This document shows, piece after piece, positions 5,316 to 26,979 of a stretch of DNA of 29,976 bases. The DNA comes from a virus. The stretch covers positions 1 to 29,976 of IMG/VR virus record IMGVR_UViG_3300045988_110429, one strand, 5' to 3'. The notes under the pieces are model-generated. The model was not told the origin of the DNA and searched no databases. It saw only the letters and a program-made list of their open reading frames with translations. A program made the translations under genes and the position numbers. Positions within the stretch are counted from its first letter, which is position 1, and each line of letters starts with the position of its first letter.

Positions 5316-5429
5316 ATGGAAGAATTAAGAGAAGAAGATATAATCGAATTAACAGAAGAAGAAATAAAAGAAATAGAAAATATTGATACTGATGCTGGGA
5401 AAGGAGATGAAGAAGATGGGGAAGAGTAG
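5316..5429 (+). CDS. Small, very acidic 37-aa ORF that overlaps the lysin start
   Basis: AAAGGAGGAA RBS 6 nt upstream of the ATG. The peptide is MEELREEDIIELTEEEIKEIENIDTDAGKGDEEDGEE. It may equally be a translated leader with no function of its own. Confidence 0.25.
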   Translation: MEELREEDIIELTEEEIKEIENIDTDAGKGDEEDGEE

Positions 5430-6192
5430 TTTAGCCACTATCTTCGTTCCTGCTTATTCAGGAAACTATACTCAAGGTAGAAGAGGAAATAAGATAAGTA
5501 AAATTACAGTGCATCATATGGCTGGTGTAATGTCAGCAACACAGTGCGGTGCATTATGGCAAAGAAAAGGACGTAGAGGCTCATCTCATTATGGTATAGG
5601 TAATGATGGTGCTATTGGTAATTATGTAGATGAAAATAACATTGCTTGGACTGATAGCAACTGGAAATCAAATTGTACATCTGTTACAATTGAAACTTCA
5701 AATAATGCTCGTGGTGGAGATTGGACTGTAAGTGATGCAGCTTTAAGTTCATTAATAAAATTATGTGCTGATATTGCTAAAAGAAATGGATTAGGTACTT
5801 TAGTGACTGGCAAAAACTTAACTTGGCATAGTATGTATACTAGCACTACTTGTCCTGGAAATTATTTAAGAAGTAAAATGCAATATATTGCTGATGAAGC
5901 TAATAAAATAAATAATCGTTCTGTTGTAGTACCTATTCCTGTAAAGAACACATTCTTACCACCAAGAGGTTACTTTAAACGTGGAGATAATGATGTCAAC
6001 GTAGGTAAAATAGCTTCATTTATGTATAAAACATTTCCTAGATATACCAAAAGAGCAGCCTTAGGAAATTTATATGGTCCAAACCTAATTGCGAGTATAA
6101 AAGAATTTCAAAGAAGGACAGGTTTAGTAGATGATGGTTGTACAGGAGAAAAGACTTTAGCTAAATTAGTCAAATATGGTTTTAGATACTAG
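5416..6192 (+). CDS. Endolysin: N-acetylmuramoyl-L-alanine amidase (Amidase_2 / PGRP fold) with a C-terminal PG_binding_1 domain
   Basis: Contains the Zn-ligand pattern HHMAG...H...C (TVHHMAG, WHSMYTSTTCPG). C-terminal LGNLYGPNLIASIKEFQRRTGLVDDGCTGEKTLAKL is a peptidoglycan-binding repeat. I chose the ATG at 5416 (GGAG 9 nt upstream) over the track start at 5383. Confidence 0.85.
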   Translation: MGKSSLATIFVPAYSGNYTQGRRGNKISKITVHHMAGVMSATQCGALWQRKGRRGSSHYGIGNDGAIGNYVDENNIAWTDSNWKSNCTSVTIETSNNARGGDWTVSDAALSSLIKLCADIAKRNGLGTLVTGKNLTWHSMYTSTTCPGNYLRSKMQYIADEANKINNRSVVVPIPVKNTFLPPRGYFKRGDNDVNVGKIASFMYKTFPRYTKRAALGNLYGPNLIASIKEFQRRTGLVDDGCTGEKTLAKLVKYGFRY

Positions 6193-6208
6193 TTTCACGT
6201 GAAACATA

Positions 6209-6236
6209 AGAGATAGAAATATCTCTTTTTTATTTT
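6209..6236 (+). terminator. Rho-independent terminator after the lysis cassette
   Basis: AGAGATA-gaaa-TATCTCT, a 7-bp stem with a GAAA loop, followed by TTTTTTATTTT. It is preceded by the 14-bp palindrome GTTTCACGTGAAAC. Confidence 0.75.
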
Positions 6237-6268: not shown

Positions 6269-6296
6269 TTGACATATCCCCCGAAAAGAGTATAAT
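6269..6296 (+). promoter_or_regulatory. Sigma-A promoter P1: TTGACA-16-TATAAT
   Basis: Perfect -35 and -10 hexamers read directly from the sequence. It sits at the head of the early small-ORF array. Confidence 0.7.
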
Positions 6297-10792: not shown

Positions 10793-10934
10793 AGATGAAA
10801 GAGAACGTGAAAAAGAATTAAAATACCTTATACATTTACGTAATGAAATTATAAAGGAAGCCAAAAAAGAAATATTAATATATCGTGATGAATTAAATTC
10901 TTTAGGGAACTCAAAAAAGAAAAGAAGAAAATAA
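10785..10934 (+). CDS. Small basic 49-aa ORF
   Basis: Read by hand: MNKDERERELKYLIHLRNEIIKEAKKEILIYRDELNSLGNSKKKRRK. It ends inside the terminator hairpin. Confidence 0.3.
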   Translation: MNKDEREREKELKYLIHLRNEIIKEAKKEILIYRDELNSLGNSKKKRRK

Positions 10935-10950
10935 TCTTCTTTTTTATTTT
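10923..10950 (+). terminator. Rho-independent terminator at the end of the early array
   Basis: AAGAAG-aaaataat-CTTCTT followed by TTTTTTATTTT. Confidence 0.55.
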
Positions 10951-11867: not shown

Positions 11868-11896
11868 TTGAAATTTAATATTAAATATGGTATAAT
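11868..11896 (+). promoter_or_regulatory. Sigma-A promoter P3: TTGAAA-17-TGgTATAAT, with an extended -10
   Basis: Read from the sequence. Lies upstream of the recombination operon. Confidence 0.65.
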
Positions 11897-11902
11897 TATA
11901 TT

Positions 11903-11990
11903 GTGTGATGAGGTAAAAGTAGATTTATTGATGCGAGCTAGCCTTATCACACGTAAGAACTAATTAGCTTGTATCAATAAATCTATTTTT
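11903..11990 (+). promoter_or_regulatory. Structured leader with two interleaved inverted repeats and a U-run
   Basis: Arm A, GTGTGATGAGG (11903-11913), pairs with CCTTATCACAC (11942-11952). Arm B, AGATTTATTGAT (11921-11932), pairs with ATCAATAAATCT (11973-11984), followed by ATTTTT. The arms interleave, so the two structures are alternatives. Confidence 0.4.
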
Positions 11991-12007
11991 AGTTAGGAGG
12001 AAGAAAA

Positions 12008-12661
12008 ATGAAAGGATTTGAAAATTTAAGTTCAGAAGTAGCAAAGGACTTAATAGAATTAGTAAATAATATTAAAGGGCTTGAAAAAAGTTCTAAAGTA
12101 GAATATAGTGTTCAAAACAAAAAAGGAGAGTGGTCTAAAAAATCATTTAGTTATGTTCCACTAGACAGCATATTAAATAAAATAAAAGAAAATAATAATT
12201 TTGCTTTACTTCAACCAATAGGAATTGATGATAATGGAATAAATGGAGTTAAATGTATTTTAATACATAAAACAGGACATATATTTGAAACTAATACATA
12301 CCCATTCAGAGATAATGAAAGTACTAAAATTCAAGATGAGGGTGCGGAAATAACTTATCGCAAAAGATATAGTGTAGGTGCTTTTTTGGGAATGGCAACT
12401 GAAGAAGATACTAACGGGAATGACCCAGAAGCAAGTAATAGTGAAGAAAGAAAAGCAACACCAAAGCAAATAGAAATATTATTGAGAACTTATAAAGACG
12501 ATAATTTAACAAAATTATTAGAATTAAATAAATTATCAAAAATAGAAGATATCACAATGCGTAAGGCTAGTGAATTAATTCAAAAAAATATAGAAAAATC
12601 AAAACAAAAAAAAGAGGAGAAAAATGAAAATGAAAAACAAAATGACAATGAAAGAATTTAA
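12008..12661 (+). CDS. erf: ERF-family single-strand annealing protein (recombinase)
   Basis: GAEITYRKRYSVGAFLGMATEEDTNGNDPE matches the ERF signature G-A-ITY-RRY-L...LGI..EDDDG. AGGAGG RBS. Followed by a nuclease gene. Confidence 0.65.
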   Translation: MKGFENLSSEVAKDLIELVNNIKGLEKSSKVEYSVQNKKGEWSKKSFSYVPLDSILNKIKENNNFALLQPIGIDDNGINGVKCILIHKTGHIFETNTYPFRDNESTKIQDEGAEITYRKRYSVGAFLGMATEEDTNGNDPEASNSEERKATPKQIEILLRTYKDDNLTKLLELNKLSKIEDITMRKASELIQKNIEKSKQKKEEKNENEKQNDNERI

Positions 12662-12791
12662 AGAAAAATATGAAGAGGCAGCTATGAAAGTATTGGAGAA
12701 CCCTGTTGAGGGACTAAAAGGGGAAGAAAAAGTTAGTGCTAAAACACAAATAACAATAATATTGACAGGAATGCTTTATTCCACCAATTAG
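12642..12791 (+). CDS. Small 49-aa ORF
   Basis: Read by hand: MTMKEFKEKYEEAAMKVLENPVEGLKGEEKVSAKTQITIILTGMLYSTN. It overlaps the end of the ERF gene. Confidence 0.25.
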   Translation: MTMKEFKEKYEEAAMKVLENPVEGLKGEEKVSAKTQITIILTGMLYSTN

Positions 12792-12821
12792 AAAAAGAAT
12801 TATTTGGGGAGGAATAATAGA

Positions 12822-13139
12822 ATGGAAAATGAATTAATGATAATAAATAACAATGAAATAGAATTAACAAAAGAGGGAATTAAATTTATAAAAAAAGTTC
12901 AAAAAGCAAAAGTTGAACTTGCCAAAATGGAACAACAATTAAAAGATATGTTTCAAGAAGAAATGGAAAAGAACAACGTAAAAAAATATACAAGTCCAGA
13001 TGGAACATTTAAAGCAACTTATTATGGAGAAACTACAACAAATAGATTTGATAGTACAAACTTCAAAAAGGAAAATGAAGAACTTTATAATAAATATTTA
13101 GTTCCATCTACAAGAAAAGCATATGTCAAATTCAACTAA
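12822..13139 (+). CDS. Hypothetical protein (106 aa) within the recombination module
   Basis: Track ORF 12804..13139. ATG at 12822 lies 9 nt after GGGGAGG. Confidence 0.5.
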   Translation: MENELMIINNNEIELTKEGIKFIKKVQKAKVELAKMEQQLKDMFQEEMEKNNVKKYTSPDGTFKATYYGETTTNRFDSTNFKKENEELYNKYLVPSTRKAYVKFN

Positions 13140-13713
13140 ACTAGAATTTGATAAAGAAACTCATACATACATAAAAGACGGAATAATTCTGACAAGCGTG
13201 ACTCAATTATTACAAGAGTTATTCCCCTTAAAGTATGAGAATGTTCCAAAGGAAATACTTAATCAAAAAGCAGAATATGGTTCTTCTGTTCATAAGTTAA
13301 TCGAAATAATTGAAAAGAAAAAGCCAAAAAACCCACTGGGTTATATTAGAAGATATTATAAGCCAAATATCTATCAAGAAGAAAGTTTAAAAGACTATTT
13401 GAATATAAAAGAACAATTCAAAATAGAAATAACTGATAGTGAAAAAATGTTATCATATAAAATGCTATATGCAGGTACATTAGATTTAAAAGGCTATGTG
13501 AACGGAAAAAAGGCTATTATAGATATTAAAACAACATATAATATTGATGAATTATACGTTAGTTGGCAAAATAGTTTATACGAATTAGCAGATGAACCAG
13601 TAGAAGAATTATATTGCTTATGGTTACCAAAAGGACGTTTAGGTAAATTAATAAAATTGGAAAGAATAGAAAAAGAATTATTATATGGCTTAATAGGAGA
13701 AGAAAATGAGTAG
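13123..13713 (+). CDS. RecB-like PD-(D/E)XK nuclease (candidate exonuclease partner of ERF)
   Basis: Motif order reads GTLDLKG (D), IIDIKTT (E-x-K), then WQNSLY (QxxxY). Adjacent to the ERF gene. Confidence 0.55.
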   Translation: MSNSTKLEFDKETHTYIKDGIILTSVTQLLQELFPLKYENVPKEILNQKAEYGSSVHKLIEIIEKKKPKNPLGYIRRYYKPNIYQEESLKDYLNIKEQFKIEITDSEKMLSYKMLYAGTLDLKGYVNGKKAIIDIKTTYNIDELYVSWQNSLYELADEPVEELYCLWLPKGRLGKLIKLERIEKELLYGLIGEENE

Positions 13714-13945
13714 ATATAGTTTTAACCAAGTAGATTTAGTTTTAGACCATTTGAAAAGAAAAGATCACATAACAACGTGGGAAGCATTTGAGTTATATGG
13801 AATAACGAGATTAAGTGCTAAAATTCATATATTACGCAAAGAAAATTATAAGATAACAAGCGTAAGTACTACAAGAAAAAATAGATATGGGCATATATGT
13901 ATATATAGCACTTATACGTTAGAGGCAGATAATGACGAGGCGTAG
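13706..13945 (+). CDS. HTH_39-type helix-turn-helix protein
   Basis: ITTWEAFELYGITRLSAKIHILRKENYKI matches the phage HTH_39 pattern. Confidence 0.45.
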   Translation: MSRYSFNQVDLVLDHLKRKDHITTWEAFELYGITRLSAKIHILRKENYKITSVSTTRKNRYGHICIYSTYTLEADNDEA

Positions 13946-14459
13946 TAAATTTTGTGAGTTTGACAAAGAAGCTAGAAAATTAATTAAAAAGCGTGATAAC
14001 AACGAATGTGTAATATGCCATAAAAAGGGTGCTTTACAGATTATGCACATATTTCTATCACGTGCAAAGGGTGGTAAAGGTTGTAAAGAAAACGGATGTC
14101 TAGGGTGTATTAAATGCCATAGTATAATGGATAATCCAATTGGAGATAAACAATTAAGACTTTCAAAACAATATCTAGAATATTGTAAAAAATACTTGAT
14201 TGAAAAAGAAAATATAAAAGACGTAAAAGTACTTATTGAAGATTTAAAATTTAAAAAAGAAAAATATTATGAAGAAAAAATAACGAACGCTTTAAAAGAA
14301 ATTGACTTACAAAAAAATAAAATTAATAGATGTAAACATTGCAAAATGTTAATCAAAAGTAATTCAAATAATAGTTCTATACCTAACTACTTTTGTAAGT
14401 ATAGAAAAATAAGATTAAGTAAAAATAATAAAGCGTGCAAATCATTTGCAAAAGAATAA
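13932..14459 (+). CDS. HNH endonuclease
   Basis: ECVICH...MHIFLSRAKGG...ENG..LGCIKCH follows the HNH pattern C-x2-C ... H-x...GG ... N ... C-x2-H. There are additional C-terminal CxxC pairs. Confidence 0.6.
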   Translation: MTRRSKFCEFDKEARKLIKKRDNNECVICHKKGALQIMHIFLSRAKGGKGCKENGCLGCIKCHSIMDNPIGDKQLRLSKQYLEYCKKYLIEKENIKDVKVLIEDLKFKKEKYYEEKITNALKEIDLQKNKINRCKHCKMLIKSNSNNSSIPNYFCKYRKIRLSKNNKACKSFAKE

Positions 14460-14502
14460 AAAATATGATATGATATTCATAGTAAGATAGGGAGGTTAAG
14501 AA

Positions 14503-14685
14503 ATGAGTTTTTTAAGAAAAATCGAACGTAACAAAGAAAAACAAAAACAAAATGATATAAAGAAAACATATGACAAAAAGCCAAAAGGAATATGTCCACG
14601 TTGTGGTAAACATAGTTTATTTATGACAAATAAAGATGGCGAAGTATTTTGCATAAGGTGTGACCAAATAGTAAAAACAAATTAA
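14503..14685 (+). CDS. Small zinc-ribbon protein
   Basis: CPRCG...CIRCD forms a C-x2-C-x16-C-x2-C motif. AGGGAGG RBS. Confidence 0.5.
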   Translation: MSFLRKIERNKEKQKQNDIKKTYDKKPKGICPRCGKHSLFMTNKDGEVFCIRCDQIVKTN

Positions 14686-14840
14686 GAAGATATCAAAAAA
14701 ACTAGAATTCATCTTCCAATTATTGTTAACTTAAATAAATAATTTTTTTTATTAAAAAACTGTAACACCAATCTTTTATATTTTTTATAAATCCTAAACT
14801 ATTATAATGGTATGAGTTTGTTCTAGTGGGTTTGATACCA

Positions 14841-14869
14841 TTGACTTTTAAAGTAGGAAAGAGTATAAT
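14841..14869 (+). promoter_or_regulatory. Sigma-A promoter P4: TTGACT-17-TATAAT
   Basis: Read from the sequence. The -35 overlaps the 3' arm of the 8-bp inverted repeat AATGGTAT (14806-14813) / ATACCATT (14835-14842). Confidence 0.6.
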
Positions 14870-14875
14870 ATAATT

Positions 14876-14950
14876 ATGGTGTTAATGACGCACCAAATAT
14901 AATAAATTTAGTTTTCTTGTACGATTTGCAACCCTAGAGGTTGCTTTTTC
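14876..14950 (+). ncRNA. Candidate small RNA of about 75 nt (P4 to terminator)
   Basis: Predicted layout is a 5' hairpin GGTGT-taatgac-GCACC, then an AU-rich single-stranded stretch, then the intrinsic terminator. It carries no ORF longer than 8 codons. Confidence 0.4.
14928..14950 (+). terminator. Rho-independent terminator
   Basis: GCAACC-ctaga-GGTTGC followed by TTTTTC. Its 3' arm is the -35 of P5. Confidence 0.55.
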
Positions 14951-14969
14951 TGTATATATATGGTACAAT
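14941..14969 (+). promoter_or_regulatory. Sigma-A promoter P5: TTGCTT-17-TGgTACAAT, with an extended -10
   Basis: Read from the sequence. Confidence 0.5.
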
Positions 14970-14995
14970 TAATTTGTAGAAAGTAGGCGTGTGGT

Positions 14996-15130
14996 ATGAA
15001 AACAATAATTACTATAATATTAGCAATCGTTATAACAATAGGCTTATTATTGTTTAATATCGTTTGCTTTTTTTTACAAGAAGAGGAATATAAACGAAGA
15101 AAGGATGGAAAGAGCAAATATGACGTATGA
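14996..15130 (+). CDS. Toxin-like membrane peptide (44 aa): one TM helix plus a charged tail
   Basis: Hand translation gives MKTIITIILAIVITIGLLLFNIVCFFLQEEEYKRRKDGKSKYDV. It is absent from the track because it falls under the 60-aa cutoff. Its stop overlaps the start of the next gene. Confidence 0.4.
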   Translation: MKTIITIILAIVITIGLLLFNIVCFFLQEEEYKRRKDGKSKYDV

Positions 15131-15605
15131 ATTTAAAAATATTAGCACAGACAATTACGAATTACATTATAACGCTAAAGATGGAAGCCAAAAAGTAATA
15201 CCTTTTACAAGGTCAATAAGTATGGCTACTAAATTACAAGGAATAACTGCACAAGCAAGACTTAAAATGTTTAAGGAATTAACTGCACAAGGTATGACTA
15301 AAGATGACCTAGTAGTTAAACACGATATGGGTAATGGAAAAGTTACATATGATGAAAGTAATTACCAAGCATTTGAAATGGAATACGTAAGAGAACAAAG
15401 TGCAATAGCAATCGATGAAATAATAAAAGAATGTTTCAAGATGGATTTAATGAATTTATTCAGTGATATGGGAGTTGATGTATACGCAACTGACCAAAAG
15501 ACTGCAAAAGAAGTTGAAATATTTACACAAAAATTCTCAACAATAATAGCAGGCAAAGATAATCAGACACCCAGTGTCGGAGATAAACAACAGTTATCAG
15601 AATAA
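15105..15605 (+). CDS. Hypothetical protein (166 aa)
   Basis: Track ORF. The internal ATG at 15120 follows a GGAAAGAG RBS and may be the real start. Confidence 0.5.
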   Translation: MERANMTYEFKNISTDNYELHYNAKDGSQKVIPFTRSISMATKLQGITAQARLKMFKELTAQGMTKDDLVVKHDMGNGKVTYDESNYQAFEMEYVREQSAIAIDEIIKECFKMDLMNLFSDMGVDVYATDQKTAKEVEIFTQKFSTIIAGKDNQTPSVGDKQQLSE

Positions 15606-17654: not shown

Positions 17655-18046
17655 TATAATTAATGTAGTGGAAAAAAGTAGCTATCTTCATAGGTAGCTT
17701 AGAATAGATATAAGAGCGAGCGTTAGGGCGGCTACGAAAACGTAAATCGGAGAGTAATTACCTCCAGAACGGTAGTCTATATCTATTCTATGGTGTCTAT
17801 AAGGCACGAAGAAATGCCCTAGAAATAGGGGAGTAACTTATACGCTGTATTTGTTATTCGAGATTGTTATATAACATTGCATTACCTTTAACAGGTAGTG
17901 TCTAGTGATATAAGACAGGTCTTTTAGTGTTAAACATAATAGTTTATAGGTATATCTATTTGATAGCACTTTAAACATAAAACCTATTTTTACCGTTATA
18001 TCATTAGACAGTATCTATTAAAGATACAAAGAAAGGAATTAAAATT
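17655..18046. other. Non-coding, locally GC-enriched structured region of 392 nt
   Basis: There is no ORF on either strand. An extended -10 promoter, TGaTATAAT, sits at 17652-17660. A GC-rich segment GAGCGAGCGTTAGGGCGGCTACG is present. TATCTAT occurs three times direct and once inverted, and GTCTATA twice direct. Several hairpins are present, including CCCTAgaaaTAGGG and GTATCTattaaAGATAC. Confidence 0.5.
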
Positions 18047-20065: not shown

Positions 20066-20269
20066 ATGGAAATTAAATGTAGGTCTAGCAAGACATTTTT
20101 ATGTGACATAGATATAGAAAGTTACTATGCCAACTTGAAAAAGATGGGAATTGACATAACAACACCTATTAAAATAAAATTCGCTTGTAGAAAGTGCAAA
20201 ATGGTTGAAGAATATGAGATATATCCCACTCATTACATTCATACCAAAAGTTATAAAAGAAAAAATTGA
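20066..20269 (+). CDS. Small Cys4 zinc-ribbon-like protein (67 aa)
   Basis: C5, C13, C41 and C44 form the ligand set. AGGAGG RBS. Confidence 0.45.
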   Translation: MEIKCRSSKTFLCDIDIESYYANLKKMGIDITTPIKIKFACRKCKMVEEYEIYPTHYIHTKSYKRKN

Positions 20270-20294
20270 CATTATATTAAATTTATGGTATAAT
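20266..20294 (+). promoter_or_regulatory. Sigma-A promoter P6: TTGACA-17-TGgTATAAT, with an extended -10
   Basis: Perfect consensus read from the sequence. The -35 overlaps the stop codon of the upstream ORF. Confidence 0.65.
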
Positions 20295-20337
20295 GTTTAT
20301 GCTAAATAGAAAGTGCAAAAAGTGTGTCAAACATAAG

Positions 20338-20377
20338 AAGCATAGAGTTAGTGATAACTTTATGCTTTTTATTTTTT
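20338..20377 (+). terminator. Attenuator-like hairpin with a U-run in the P6 leader
   Basis: AAGCATA, a 16-nt loop, TATGCTT, then TTTTTATTTTTTAT, about 40 nt downstream of the predicted start site. Confidence 0.4.
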
Positions 20378-20397
20378 ATATAGAAAGAGGCTATGAT

Positions 20398-20709
20398 ATG
20401 AGATTTAAAAAAAACATTATTAAGTTAGTAAATAAAATTAAAGAATTTGTTCAAAAGAAAATACTAAAAAGTGATAAGTGGAAGTTATTCTTATACTTGA
20501 ATGGTCAATGTGTAAGTAAAAGATACATAAGTGCAGATTTTGCACCTATGAATAAGTTCTATGTAATAAAAGTAAAACACGCTAAACATTTAATAGGAAC
20601 TAATAGAAGCACTCAATTAGTAGTAAGAAGTTATAAATATAAAATGACGGATGAAGCTAAAAGAGAAGCTCATATAGAAGTAATTATTTATGAGGGGAGT
20701 GACATTTAG
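20398..20709 (+). CDS. Hypothetical basic protein (103 aa) inserted between terL and portal
   Basis: ATG at 20398 follows an AAAGAGG RBS. The track ORF 20293..20709 reads through the leader. Confidence 0.5.
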   Translation: MRFKKNIIKLVNKIKEFVQKKILKSDKWKLFLYLNGQCVSKRYISADFAPMNKFYVIKVKHAKHLIGTNRSTQLVVRSYKYKMTDEAKREAHIEVIIYEGSDI

Positions 20710-26942: not shown

Positions 26943-26979
26943 AAGGGTAAGGGTATAAAGCCCTTACTCTTATTTTTTT
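26943..26979 (+). terminator. Rho-independent terminator after the major tail gene
   Basis: AAGGGTAAGGG-tataaag-CCCTTACTCTT, 11 bp with one G-U pair, followed by TATTTTTTT. Confidence 0.7.

Follow-up and report, generated by a model that had tools for sequence, protein, structure and literature searches.

The nut boxB of phage lambda, the put sites of HK022, EAR and the LoaP leader hairpins are cis-acting RNA sites of antitermination. At lambda PR'-tR', the system of 6S RNA, StxS and Q, the last early or middle gene is followed by a strong host-type promoter directly upstream of the late genes, and an intrinsic terminator comes within ~60 nucleotides (nt). The 74-nt StxS is a by-product of PR'-tR' antitermination control that acts in trans (PMC7547250). 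The Ltr super-family (RinA, ArpU, LtrC) of Gram-positive siphophages binds 7-nt direct repeats, of which 2–4 copies stand between the gene of the family member and the late (terS) promoter (PMC3753634). Here we describe a comparable locus in an uncultured phage represented by IMG/VR record IMGVR_UViG_3300045988_110429, all 29,976 nt of which were analysed (the window). It comprises a promoter (P1) and an intrinsic terminator (T) within a control region, 14806–14995, at the junction of the replication and recombination genes with the terS-terL-portal-structural gene block (Table 1). A first-pass annotation made from the sequence had taken the P1-T unit for a gene encoding a trans-acting small RNA (sRNA). 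We favour, at about even confidence, a different reading from the sequence comparisons: P1-T would be the promoter of the late block with a promoter-proximal terminator, and the ~75-nt RNA its terminated leader.

P1 matches the consensus at 11 of 12 positions, as the first-pass annotation had described, and the distance from P1 to T is 58 bases. T folds at -8.4 kcal/mol (z = -3.4, matched by none of 200 shuffles) and is one-directional, its minus-strand copy lacking a U-run. It is the first credible plus-strand terminator beyond the 12008–14685 operon, and the only plus-strand terminator-like site that the scanner reports between 10 and 20 kb of the window, a standard scan that misses AT-rich terminators with fewer than three G-C pairs such as those at 6208 and 10919. 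The order of elements in the predicted RNA, a 5' hairpin, an AU-rich single-stranded region and a terminator hairpin, was likewise recovered by folding, the 77-nt stretch as a whole giving -15.8 kcal/mol (z = -2.3). There is no plus-strand open reading frame (ORF) of at least 20 amino acids (aa) within 14686–14988, and the sole reading frame between P1 and T is an 8-codon ATG frame at the predicted start site without a ribosome-binding site, in agreement with the earlier statement that no credible ORF is present. The P1-T unit thus configured probably makes an RNA of ~75 nt, similar in size to StxS. As at PR'-tR', a near-consensus promoter stands immediately upstream of the late operon and an intrinsic terminator follows it within ~200 nt, with terS, terL and portal downstream.

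Variation among close relatives was used to assess these elements. Relatives were gathered via the 161-aa product of the second late gene, whose database matches form a cluster at ≥90% identity, the next matches being at ≤57% with nothing intermediate; 20 near-identical contigs represent 13 distinct sequences, and together with the window these make 14 genomes that are ~97–99% identical. Both P1 hexamers are fixed and the spacer between them is among the most variable sequence of the region, and neither the P1 spacer nor that of a second candidate promoter, P2, contains an indel. Since the hexamers and the spacer length are fixed and the spacer sequence is free, these are the marks of real promoters and of a unit under selection. 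The T stem-loop and the 5' hairpin are invariant in all 14 genomes. The single variable site in the RNA body (14919) is G in the window and A in 13/13 relatives, and position 14950 is T in 13/13 relatives, giving a U7 run where the window has U5. This pattern shows an RNA body apparently under constraint; set against the 120-nt spacer upstream, from which ~3.7 variable sites would be expected in the body and one is observed, the difference is not significant, and with only one body substitution in 14 genomes the sequences are too alike for a covariation test of the RNA.

P1 belongs to a small set of strong promoters. Plus-strand matches of at least 11/12 number six (6269, 10955, 11868, 14841, 20151 and 20266) against 1.5 expected from Markov shuffles (P ~0.005), and five of these head gene blocks, each within an intergenic gap or at its edge, the sixth (20151) being inside a 67-aa ORF. 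The early promoters at 6269 and 10955 have terminators upstream (6208, 10919) and lead straight into a ribosome-binding site. At the other three block heads (11868, 14841 and 20266) a stable hairpin and U-run follow within 10–60 nt, and then the next block begins.

Both sister units are conserved in relatives. The hairpin at 11911–11990 folds at -35.7 kcal/mol (z = -6), and the design of the 11868 unit is retained with compensatory changes in another contig (L204, ~870–1000; related contigs are designated here by L numbers). The 5' leader of this unit, GTGTGATGAGG, is complementary to the apical loop of the hairpin, CCTTATCACAC, as are the equivalent segments of L204 (GTGTACAGG and CCTGTACAC), which suggests a pseudoknot or an alternative structure. 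The second unit, at 20266, has a hairpin of -19.6 kcal/mol, and in ten relatives located by portal homology (L186–L195, 56–86% identity) the hairpin and U-run are found in 10/10 and a scored promoter in 7/10. Its terminator stem has compensatory changes at 10 of 15 pairs, and the AAGTGCA leader motif and the T-run are invariant in these ten. Judged from this pattern, the 20266 unit resembles an attenuator under regulation. For the ORF given as 20293–20709, ATG 20400 is the most likely start. The leader also carries a small covarying hairpin, with the motif in the form AAGTGCA(A). The possibility that AAGTGCAA in the portal leader encodes a small Cys-x-x-Cys peptide was considered and rejected: compared with L187, L189 carries one inserted nucleotide, and in L186 a stop comes early. 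Motifs shared between leaders were also not convincingly enriched (AAAGTAGR, 10 versus 5.4 expected; AAGTGSAA, 8 versus 3.5 expected, with the copies mostly in genes).

From the conservation of the 11868 and 20266 units in relatives it follows that this phage family appears to use promoter-proximal terminators as conserved leader elements before its later gene blocks, and it is on this basis that we read P1-T as a leader. P1 would be the host-type (sigma-70/sigma-A) promoter of this lineage, which relatives place immediately after a conserved hairpin (H) described below. Most P1 transcripts, along with transcripts reading through from the upstream operon, would stop at 14945–14951 and yield a ~75-nt terminated leader. 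Late-gene expression would then come from polymerases that pass T, because it is leaky or with the help of an antitermination factor or RNA element, and possibly also from the weaker P2. The logic would be that of lambda PR'-tR', where the promoter is constitutive, a terminator follows at once and a short RNA is the by-product. We infer from these comparisons termination at T, control over its read-through and the action of some factor in that control.

The corresponding slot in more distant relatives supports the assignment of P1 and points to a recent arrival of T. These phages retain the order HNH-like gene, (zinc-ribbon gene), gap, (peptide gene), 161-aa homologue. In L012, L009 and L014 a strong promoter after or overlapping hairpin H leads straight into the first late gene without a terminator, and in the main cluster of relatives (L013, L015–L034, L038–L041), as in L108, L068, L160 and L179, a ribosome-binding site follows 15–25 nt past H. 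P1 has the same placement relative to H as the promoters of L014, L062 and L065, and is therefore the positional equivalent of a messenger RNA (mRNA) promoter. No counterpart of the RNA body was found in ~15 distant lineages with the same gene order, its only occurrences being in the ~97–99% identical genomes. BLAST of 14870–14995 against 1.38 Mb of related loci returned only chance matches of 13–14 nt, plus two loci that had been fetched by the 17-mer itself, and the exact 17-mer of the 5' hairpin has two chance matches in IMG/VR, both in unrelated coding sequence. The 5' hairpin, linker, T and P2 thus form a ~95-nt lineage-specific insertion between promoter and peptide gene; L009 has the peptide gene without this insertion, and L064 independently shows a promoter, a hairpin with a U6 run, and a ribosome-binding site in the P1-T slot.

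Several observations weigh against a late-block leader. Neither T nor the RNA body occupies the slot in the nearest intermediate relative, L012 (contig 126185), which does retain the other two leader terminators, so that the attenuator at 14841 is a recent, lineage-specific acquisition. T is modest in the window, with 6 bp, the folding energy given above and U5. The neighbouring proteins yielded no homologue of Q, N, LoaP/NusG or RinA/ArpU, and searches of Pfam, PHROGs, NCBIfam and PDB with the upstream proteins detected only an HNH-like domain, a winged helix-turn-helix (wHTH) and a zinc ribbon, with no Q-family antiterminator. Finally, P2, if real, would free the late genes from needing read-through of T. 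P2 lies between T and the late genes, and its -35 does lie within the 3' arm of T, an overlap that the first-pass annotation had pointed out. It scores 9/12 with an extended -10 TG, by sequence alone no better than chance matches; its polymorphism is promoter-like, and the TG is lost in 3/13 relatives.

One rival reading, which we regard as unlikely, is that of the first-pass annotation: P1 and T would constitute an autonomous sRNA gene producing a stable ~75-nt RNA whose AU-rich linker, the proposed seed, pairs with host or phage mRNAs. The unit is discrete and free of ORFs, and has a consensus promoter and a terminator to itself, as in phage and prophage base-pairing sRNAs of 70–80 nt; a stable Gram-positive sRNA would be expected to have a hairpin at its 5' end, here at +2, and a terminator hairpin at its 3' end; the body varies less than the promoter spacers or neighbouring coding sequences (Table 1); a functional P2 would remove the need for read-through; and StxS provides a precedent for a by-product acting in trans. 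These features, and the constraint on the unit, bear out a discrete promoter-to-terminator unit that is functional. Its description as a classic trans-acting sRNA is possible but was supported by none of the comparisons made, in that the body has no homologue in the related phage DNA or, as the exact 17-mer, in IMG/VR, and is absent below ~97% identity despite the kept gene order, such that no seed is conserved in diverged relatives; P1 occupies the slot of an mRNA promoter; both sister units of the same genome are conserved leaders and not sRNAs; and the conservation of the body does not significantly exceed that of the upstream spacer. The predicted pairing to phage 5' regions was not borne out. 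Duplex energies were computed for the seed and for the whole RNA against 55 phage translation-start regions with shuffled controls: the best seed duplex (-14.6 kcal/mol) is weaker than the mean of the shuffled best (-15.8) and is equalled by 70% of shuffles, and the whole RNA against the start region of the 14996 peptide mRNA, the target singled out earlier, gives -19.0 versus -18.6 for shuffles, 43% of which pair as well or better. Pairing of the RNA 5' end with the peptide start region through an inverted repeat (I2, 74% complementary over 23 nt) was similarly no better than in shuffles.

We also think it improbable that the locus is an operon boundary with promoter interference, in which T would end the Erf-to-zinc-ribbon operon and P2 would be the true late promoter, with polymerases from P1 terminating on the P2 -35 and occluding P2 until P1 is turned off, for instance via a factor at H, and the short RNA having no function. 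Terminator-then-promoter pairs do flank both early blocks (6208/6269 and 10919/10955), the 3' arm of T provides the P2 -35, the P2 -10 and leader are invariant next to a hypervariable spacer, the conserved H overlaps the P1 -35, and no other plus-strand terminator follows the upstream operon. Yet P2 is a poor match that loses its TG in some relatives, the invariance of 14964–14995 may simply reflect the ribosome-binding region, the distance from H to the promoter (4–30 nt) is unlike the fixed geometry of a DNA operator, and the invariance of the 5' hairpin and linker is left unexplained. It is highly improbable that P1 and T are chance promoter- and terminator-like strings without function in intergenic DNA of 27% G+C, since, although such AT-rich DNA is full of -10-like hexamers and promoter-like matches of at least 9/12 are as frequent as in shuffles (63 versus 62.6), those of at least 11/12 are enriched fourfold with five of six at block heads, the T fold with its U-run is well outside the shuffled range, and invariant hexamers around variable spacers of fixed length are the signature of real promoters.

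Table 1. Features of the P1-T locus and of the window, with variable sites among the 14 near-identical genomes and hairpin H stems in relatives.
Feature	Position	Strand	Description	Variable sites
Promoter P1	14841-14869	+	11/12 consensus; start predicted near 14876	
P1 -35	14841-14846	+	TTGACT	0/6
P1 spacer		+	17 nt	6/17
P1 -10	14864-14869	+	TATAAT	0/6
RNA body	14876-14949	+		1/74
5' hairpin	14877-14882 pairs with 14890-14895	+	GGUGUU, 7-nt loop, GCACCA; -6.6 kcal/mol, z = -2.7; begins at +2	
AU-rich linker (proposed seed)	14896-14927	+	~15% G+C; essentially without structure	
Intrinsic terminator T	14928-14951	+	GCAACC, 5-nt loop, GGTTGC (14928-14944), U5	
Candidate promoter P2	14941-14969	+	TTGCTT (14941-14946), 17-nt spacer, TACAAT (14964-14969), TG at 14961-14962; -35 inside 3' arm of T	
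U-run/P2 spacer		+		6/19
P2 -10 and leader		+	26-nt leader invariant	0/32
Neighbouring coding sequences				3.7-8 per 100
Promoter spacers				~32-35 per 100
Hairpin H	14806-14842	+	8-bp stem AATGGTAT/ATACCATT plus U-G pair 14805/14843; 21-nt loop GAGTTTG-N7-GGGTTTG	
H stem, window			AATGGTAT / ATACCATT	
H stem, L012			AACAATGT / ACATTGTT	
H stem, L009			TTCTATGT / ACATAGAA	
H stem, L001			AAAACTAT / ATAGTTTT	
H stem, main cluster			GAAATTAT / ATAATTTC	
H stem, L031			TTATATTGT / ACAATATAA	
H stem, L062			AAGTGTTAT / ATAACACTT	
H stem, L065			GGCAC / GTGCC	
H stem, L108			AAGTAAATAT / ATATTTACTT	
Sister unit 1	11868-12007	+	promoter 11/12 + TG; 28-bp near-perfect hairpin 11911-11990 and U-run abutting ribosome-binding site of Erf-like gene	
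Sister unit 2	20266-20399	+	promoter 12/12 + TG; leader motif AAGTGCAA; 18-bp hairpin 20333-20372 and U-run; ribosome-binding site; ATG 20400 upstream of portal	
AT-rich intrinsic terminators bounding transcription blocks	6208-6227, 10919-10944, 26943-26971		first two each precede a consensus promoter (6269, 10955)	
Endolysin	5383-6192	+	followed by ~20 small early genes, a helix-turn-helix protein and a DnaD-like loader	
Erf-like annealing protein	starts 12008	+	followed by exonuclease, wHTH and 175-aa HNH-like protein	
60-aa basic zinc-ribbon protein	14503-14685	+	pI 9.7; closes replication/recombination gene cluster	
Gap containing P1-T unit	between 60-aa zinc-ribbon gene and 14996 peptide gene		310 nt	
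44-aa membrane peptide	14996-15130	+	first gene of late block; gene call in all near-identical relatives	
161-aa protein (MTYEF...)	15120-15605	+	second gene; leads gene run to terS	
terS, terL, portal	16859, 18681, 20709	+	several small genes precede terS; structural genes follow portal	

Of the elements in the gap, hairpin H alone, immediately upstream of P1, is kept from lineage to lineage; it shares 2 nt of its 3' arm with the P1 -35. It is found in ~20 distinct lineages (those named here are L001, L003, L009, L012, L014, L016, L031, L062, L064, L065, L068, L108, L155, L160 and L179), with one copy per phage, always at the head of a gene block, that leading to the packaging genes. The stem changes in sequence and has 8–10 bp, and the 7-nt direct repeats of the loop (GAGTTTG at 14814–14820 and GGGTTTG at 14828–14834 in the window) are kept, within a loop of 21–23 nt and the general pattern GAGTTTG-N7-9-GAGTTTG. 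Among 16 distinct sequences all eight pairs have changed on both sides, the observed covariation score is reached by no shuffle, and 93% of cells are paired versus 39–55% with the partner slid. Single-sided changes in the stem number three (L045, the L016 group and L155), and these are all G-U on the plus strand and never A-C, so that plus-strand RNA is weakly favoured. A covariance model finds one copy in the window, which scores 54.8 bits where the runner-up scores 14, and Rfam has no match at the gathering score for the window, a 501-nt region or ten related loci, the best sub-threshold hit having E >1. H is thus a new structured element as predicted from covariation, with two GAGUUUG repeats and outside Rfam. 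GAGUUUG is also the start of the universal 5' sequence of 16S RNA (AGAGUUUGAUC), possibly by coincidence.

The genes around H differ between lineages: it lies upstream of a 113-aa ORF in L068, between SpoVG-like and recombinase-like genes in L160, and in L179 it is flanked by genes for a LexA-type wHTH and a ParB-methyltransferase. In the main cluster a promoter (TTGCAA-17-TGcTATAAT) at the end of the zinc-ribbon gene is located 175–190 nt upstream of the 161-aa homologue, and H is therefore part of the mRNA there. The 175-nt leader comprises a long-range stem, GGAGAACAAG...CTTTGTTCTCC, around a variable 60–100-nt insert, then H, a U6 run and the ribosome-binding site; the stem of L031 is GGAGAACATC...GATGTTCTCC, with compensatory changes. 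Several lineages have a U-run directly past the H stem. In the window the P1 start lies past H, so that H would be carried solely by transcripts reading through from the operon before it, and these would meet T ~90 nt on.

The resemblance to Ltr systems is that the early cluster closes with a 60-aa protein of pI 9.7 and that a pair of 7-nt direct repeats lies between it and the late-block promoter. However, this protein is a zinc ribbon without a match to an Ltr family, no protein from 12804 to 16564 matches the RinA/ArpU family, and the zinc-ribbon protein is missing beside H in L001, L108, L068, L160 and L179. The repeats here are inside a covarying stem, which points to a hairpin in RNA or single-stranded DNA, and lineages differ in how far the repeats are from the -10 of the downstream promoter (4–30 nt). 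P1, being near consensus as it stands, should have no need of an activator. H as a classical activator site is not supported, the spacing being neither constant nor in helical phase, and H as a sigma-70 promoter in general was rejected, TTGAYA serving as a -35 only in L012 and L009 and the main-cluster spacer being 14 nt were it used. A cos or pac site at H found no support, the contig ends of relatives being scattered and not at H.

Compared with the antitermination RNA sites named above, H similarly has a conserved loop on a freely covarying stem, stands at the head of a long late operon with terminators further on (T at 14928 and the hairpin at 20333), and in many lineages is carried in the mRNA leader shortly before the ribosome-binding site. 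It differs in that a loop of this size with two direct repeats resembles none of them, and in its position upstream of the P1 start in the window. By analogy, H would be better explained as an RNA site of the nut or put kind, or as a terminator under protein control, than as an Ltr-type site.

Two further elements were seen in the gaps of these phages. L035 (~2330–2500), a more distant relative, has a canonical HNH gene upstream and, instead of the GAGTTTG hairpin, another direct repeat (TGTCGTAA, present twice). A recurrent element at 17690–17815 of the window, in a 392-nt gap (17655–18046), has the conserved ends TATAGGTAGCATAGA(A/G)TAGATATAT ... ATATATCTATTCTATGGTGC plus a small hairpin and a variable interior of 40–110 nt; it is also present in L001 (2505–2665), L037 (170–450, two copies), L062 (2420–2545), L094 and L146, and in L001 and L037 it fills the P1-T slot. 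The A/G of its 5' arm is opposite a constant U (A-U or G-U), as in an RNA helix, and it has no Rfam match.

The source phage has a genome of ~30 kb and 27% G+C (25–35% locally), with ORFs exclusively on the plus strand, and the window is a complete JGI contig. Megablast against GenBank phages gave no match to the window, and the terL product is only ~25% identical to those of cultured phages, so there is no characterised relative for comparison. The relatives are 30–34-kb gut-metagenome contigs, of which some fall into genome bins of uncultured Bacilli or 'Tenericutes'. The near-identical genomes differ by insertions of HNH_3/NUMOD homing endonucleases (L045, L049, L052–L055, L058 and L059), located between the wHTH and HNH-like genes and also near terS; they also swap Erf for RecT and differ in the genes between a 137-aa protein and terS, the population being highly mosaic. 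The 44-aa peptide at the head of the late block has a single membrane helix and a charged tail; a 53-aa homologue is at the same place in L009 (2314–2475), and it is missing from most relatives. The following gene, called as a 166-aa ORF from 15105, more likely encodes 161 aa, since ATG 15120 is present in most of the listed members (30) of its 32-member cluster at 90% identity and distant homologues begin MKYEF; with this start it overlaps the peptide gene by 11 nt.

The arrangement favoured here, a terminator close behind the promoter of the late block, is of a kind already known from PR'-tR', 6S RNA and StxS, now in an unrelated and uncharacterised phage lineage, a low-G+C Firmicute-type virus without sequence similarity to lambdoid phages. 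It departs from the lambda system in having no detected Q-family protein among those encoded upstream, a candidate promoter beyond the terminator, and a terminator that is lineage-specific in its slot. The newer part is the combination of three such leaders with a new covarying hairpin and no recognisable antiterminator. A possible though doubtful extension, offered tentatively from the sequence comparisons, is that the three leaders, the (GAGUUUG)x2 hairpin and the invariant AAGUGCAA motif represent an undescribed antitermination programme that times middle and late transcription in widespread uncultured phages of gut Bacilli lacking a recognisable Q, N, Ltr or sigma factor. H would act in it as a put- or nut-like RNA site, by itself or bound by the small zinc-ribbon protein or a host protein, to give read-through of T, and the 75-nt RNA would be a terminated leader possibly recruited in trans; by analogy with StxS, such a secondary trans role could have been gained by the leader RNA.

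Next to nothing is known of how the abundant uncultured phages of gut Firmicutes time their transcription. If the terminators described here are regulated, late genes in these phages would be timed by antitermination without a known antiterminator, and both the factor and its RNA site would be discoverable. A promoter-hairpin-terminator unit that heads an operon is accordingly best read first as a leader or attenuator, and the by-product RNAs of such leaders are where phage sRNAs such as StxS arose.

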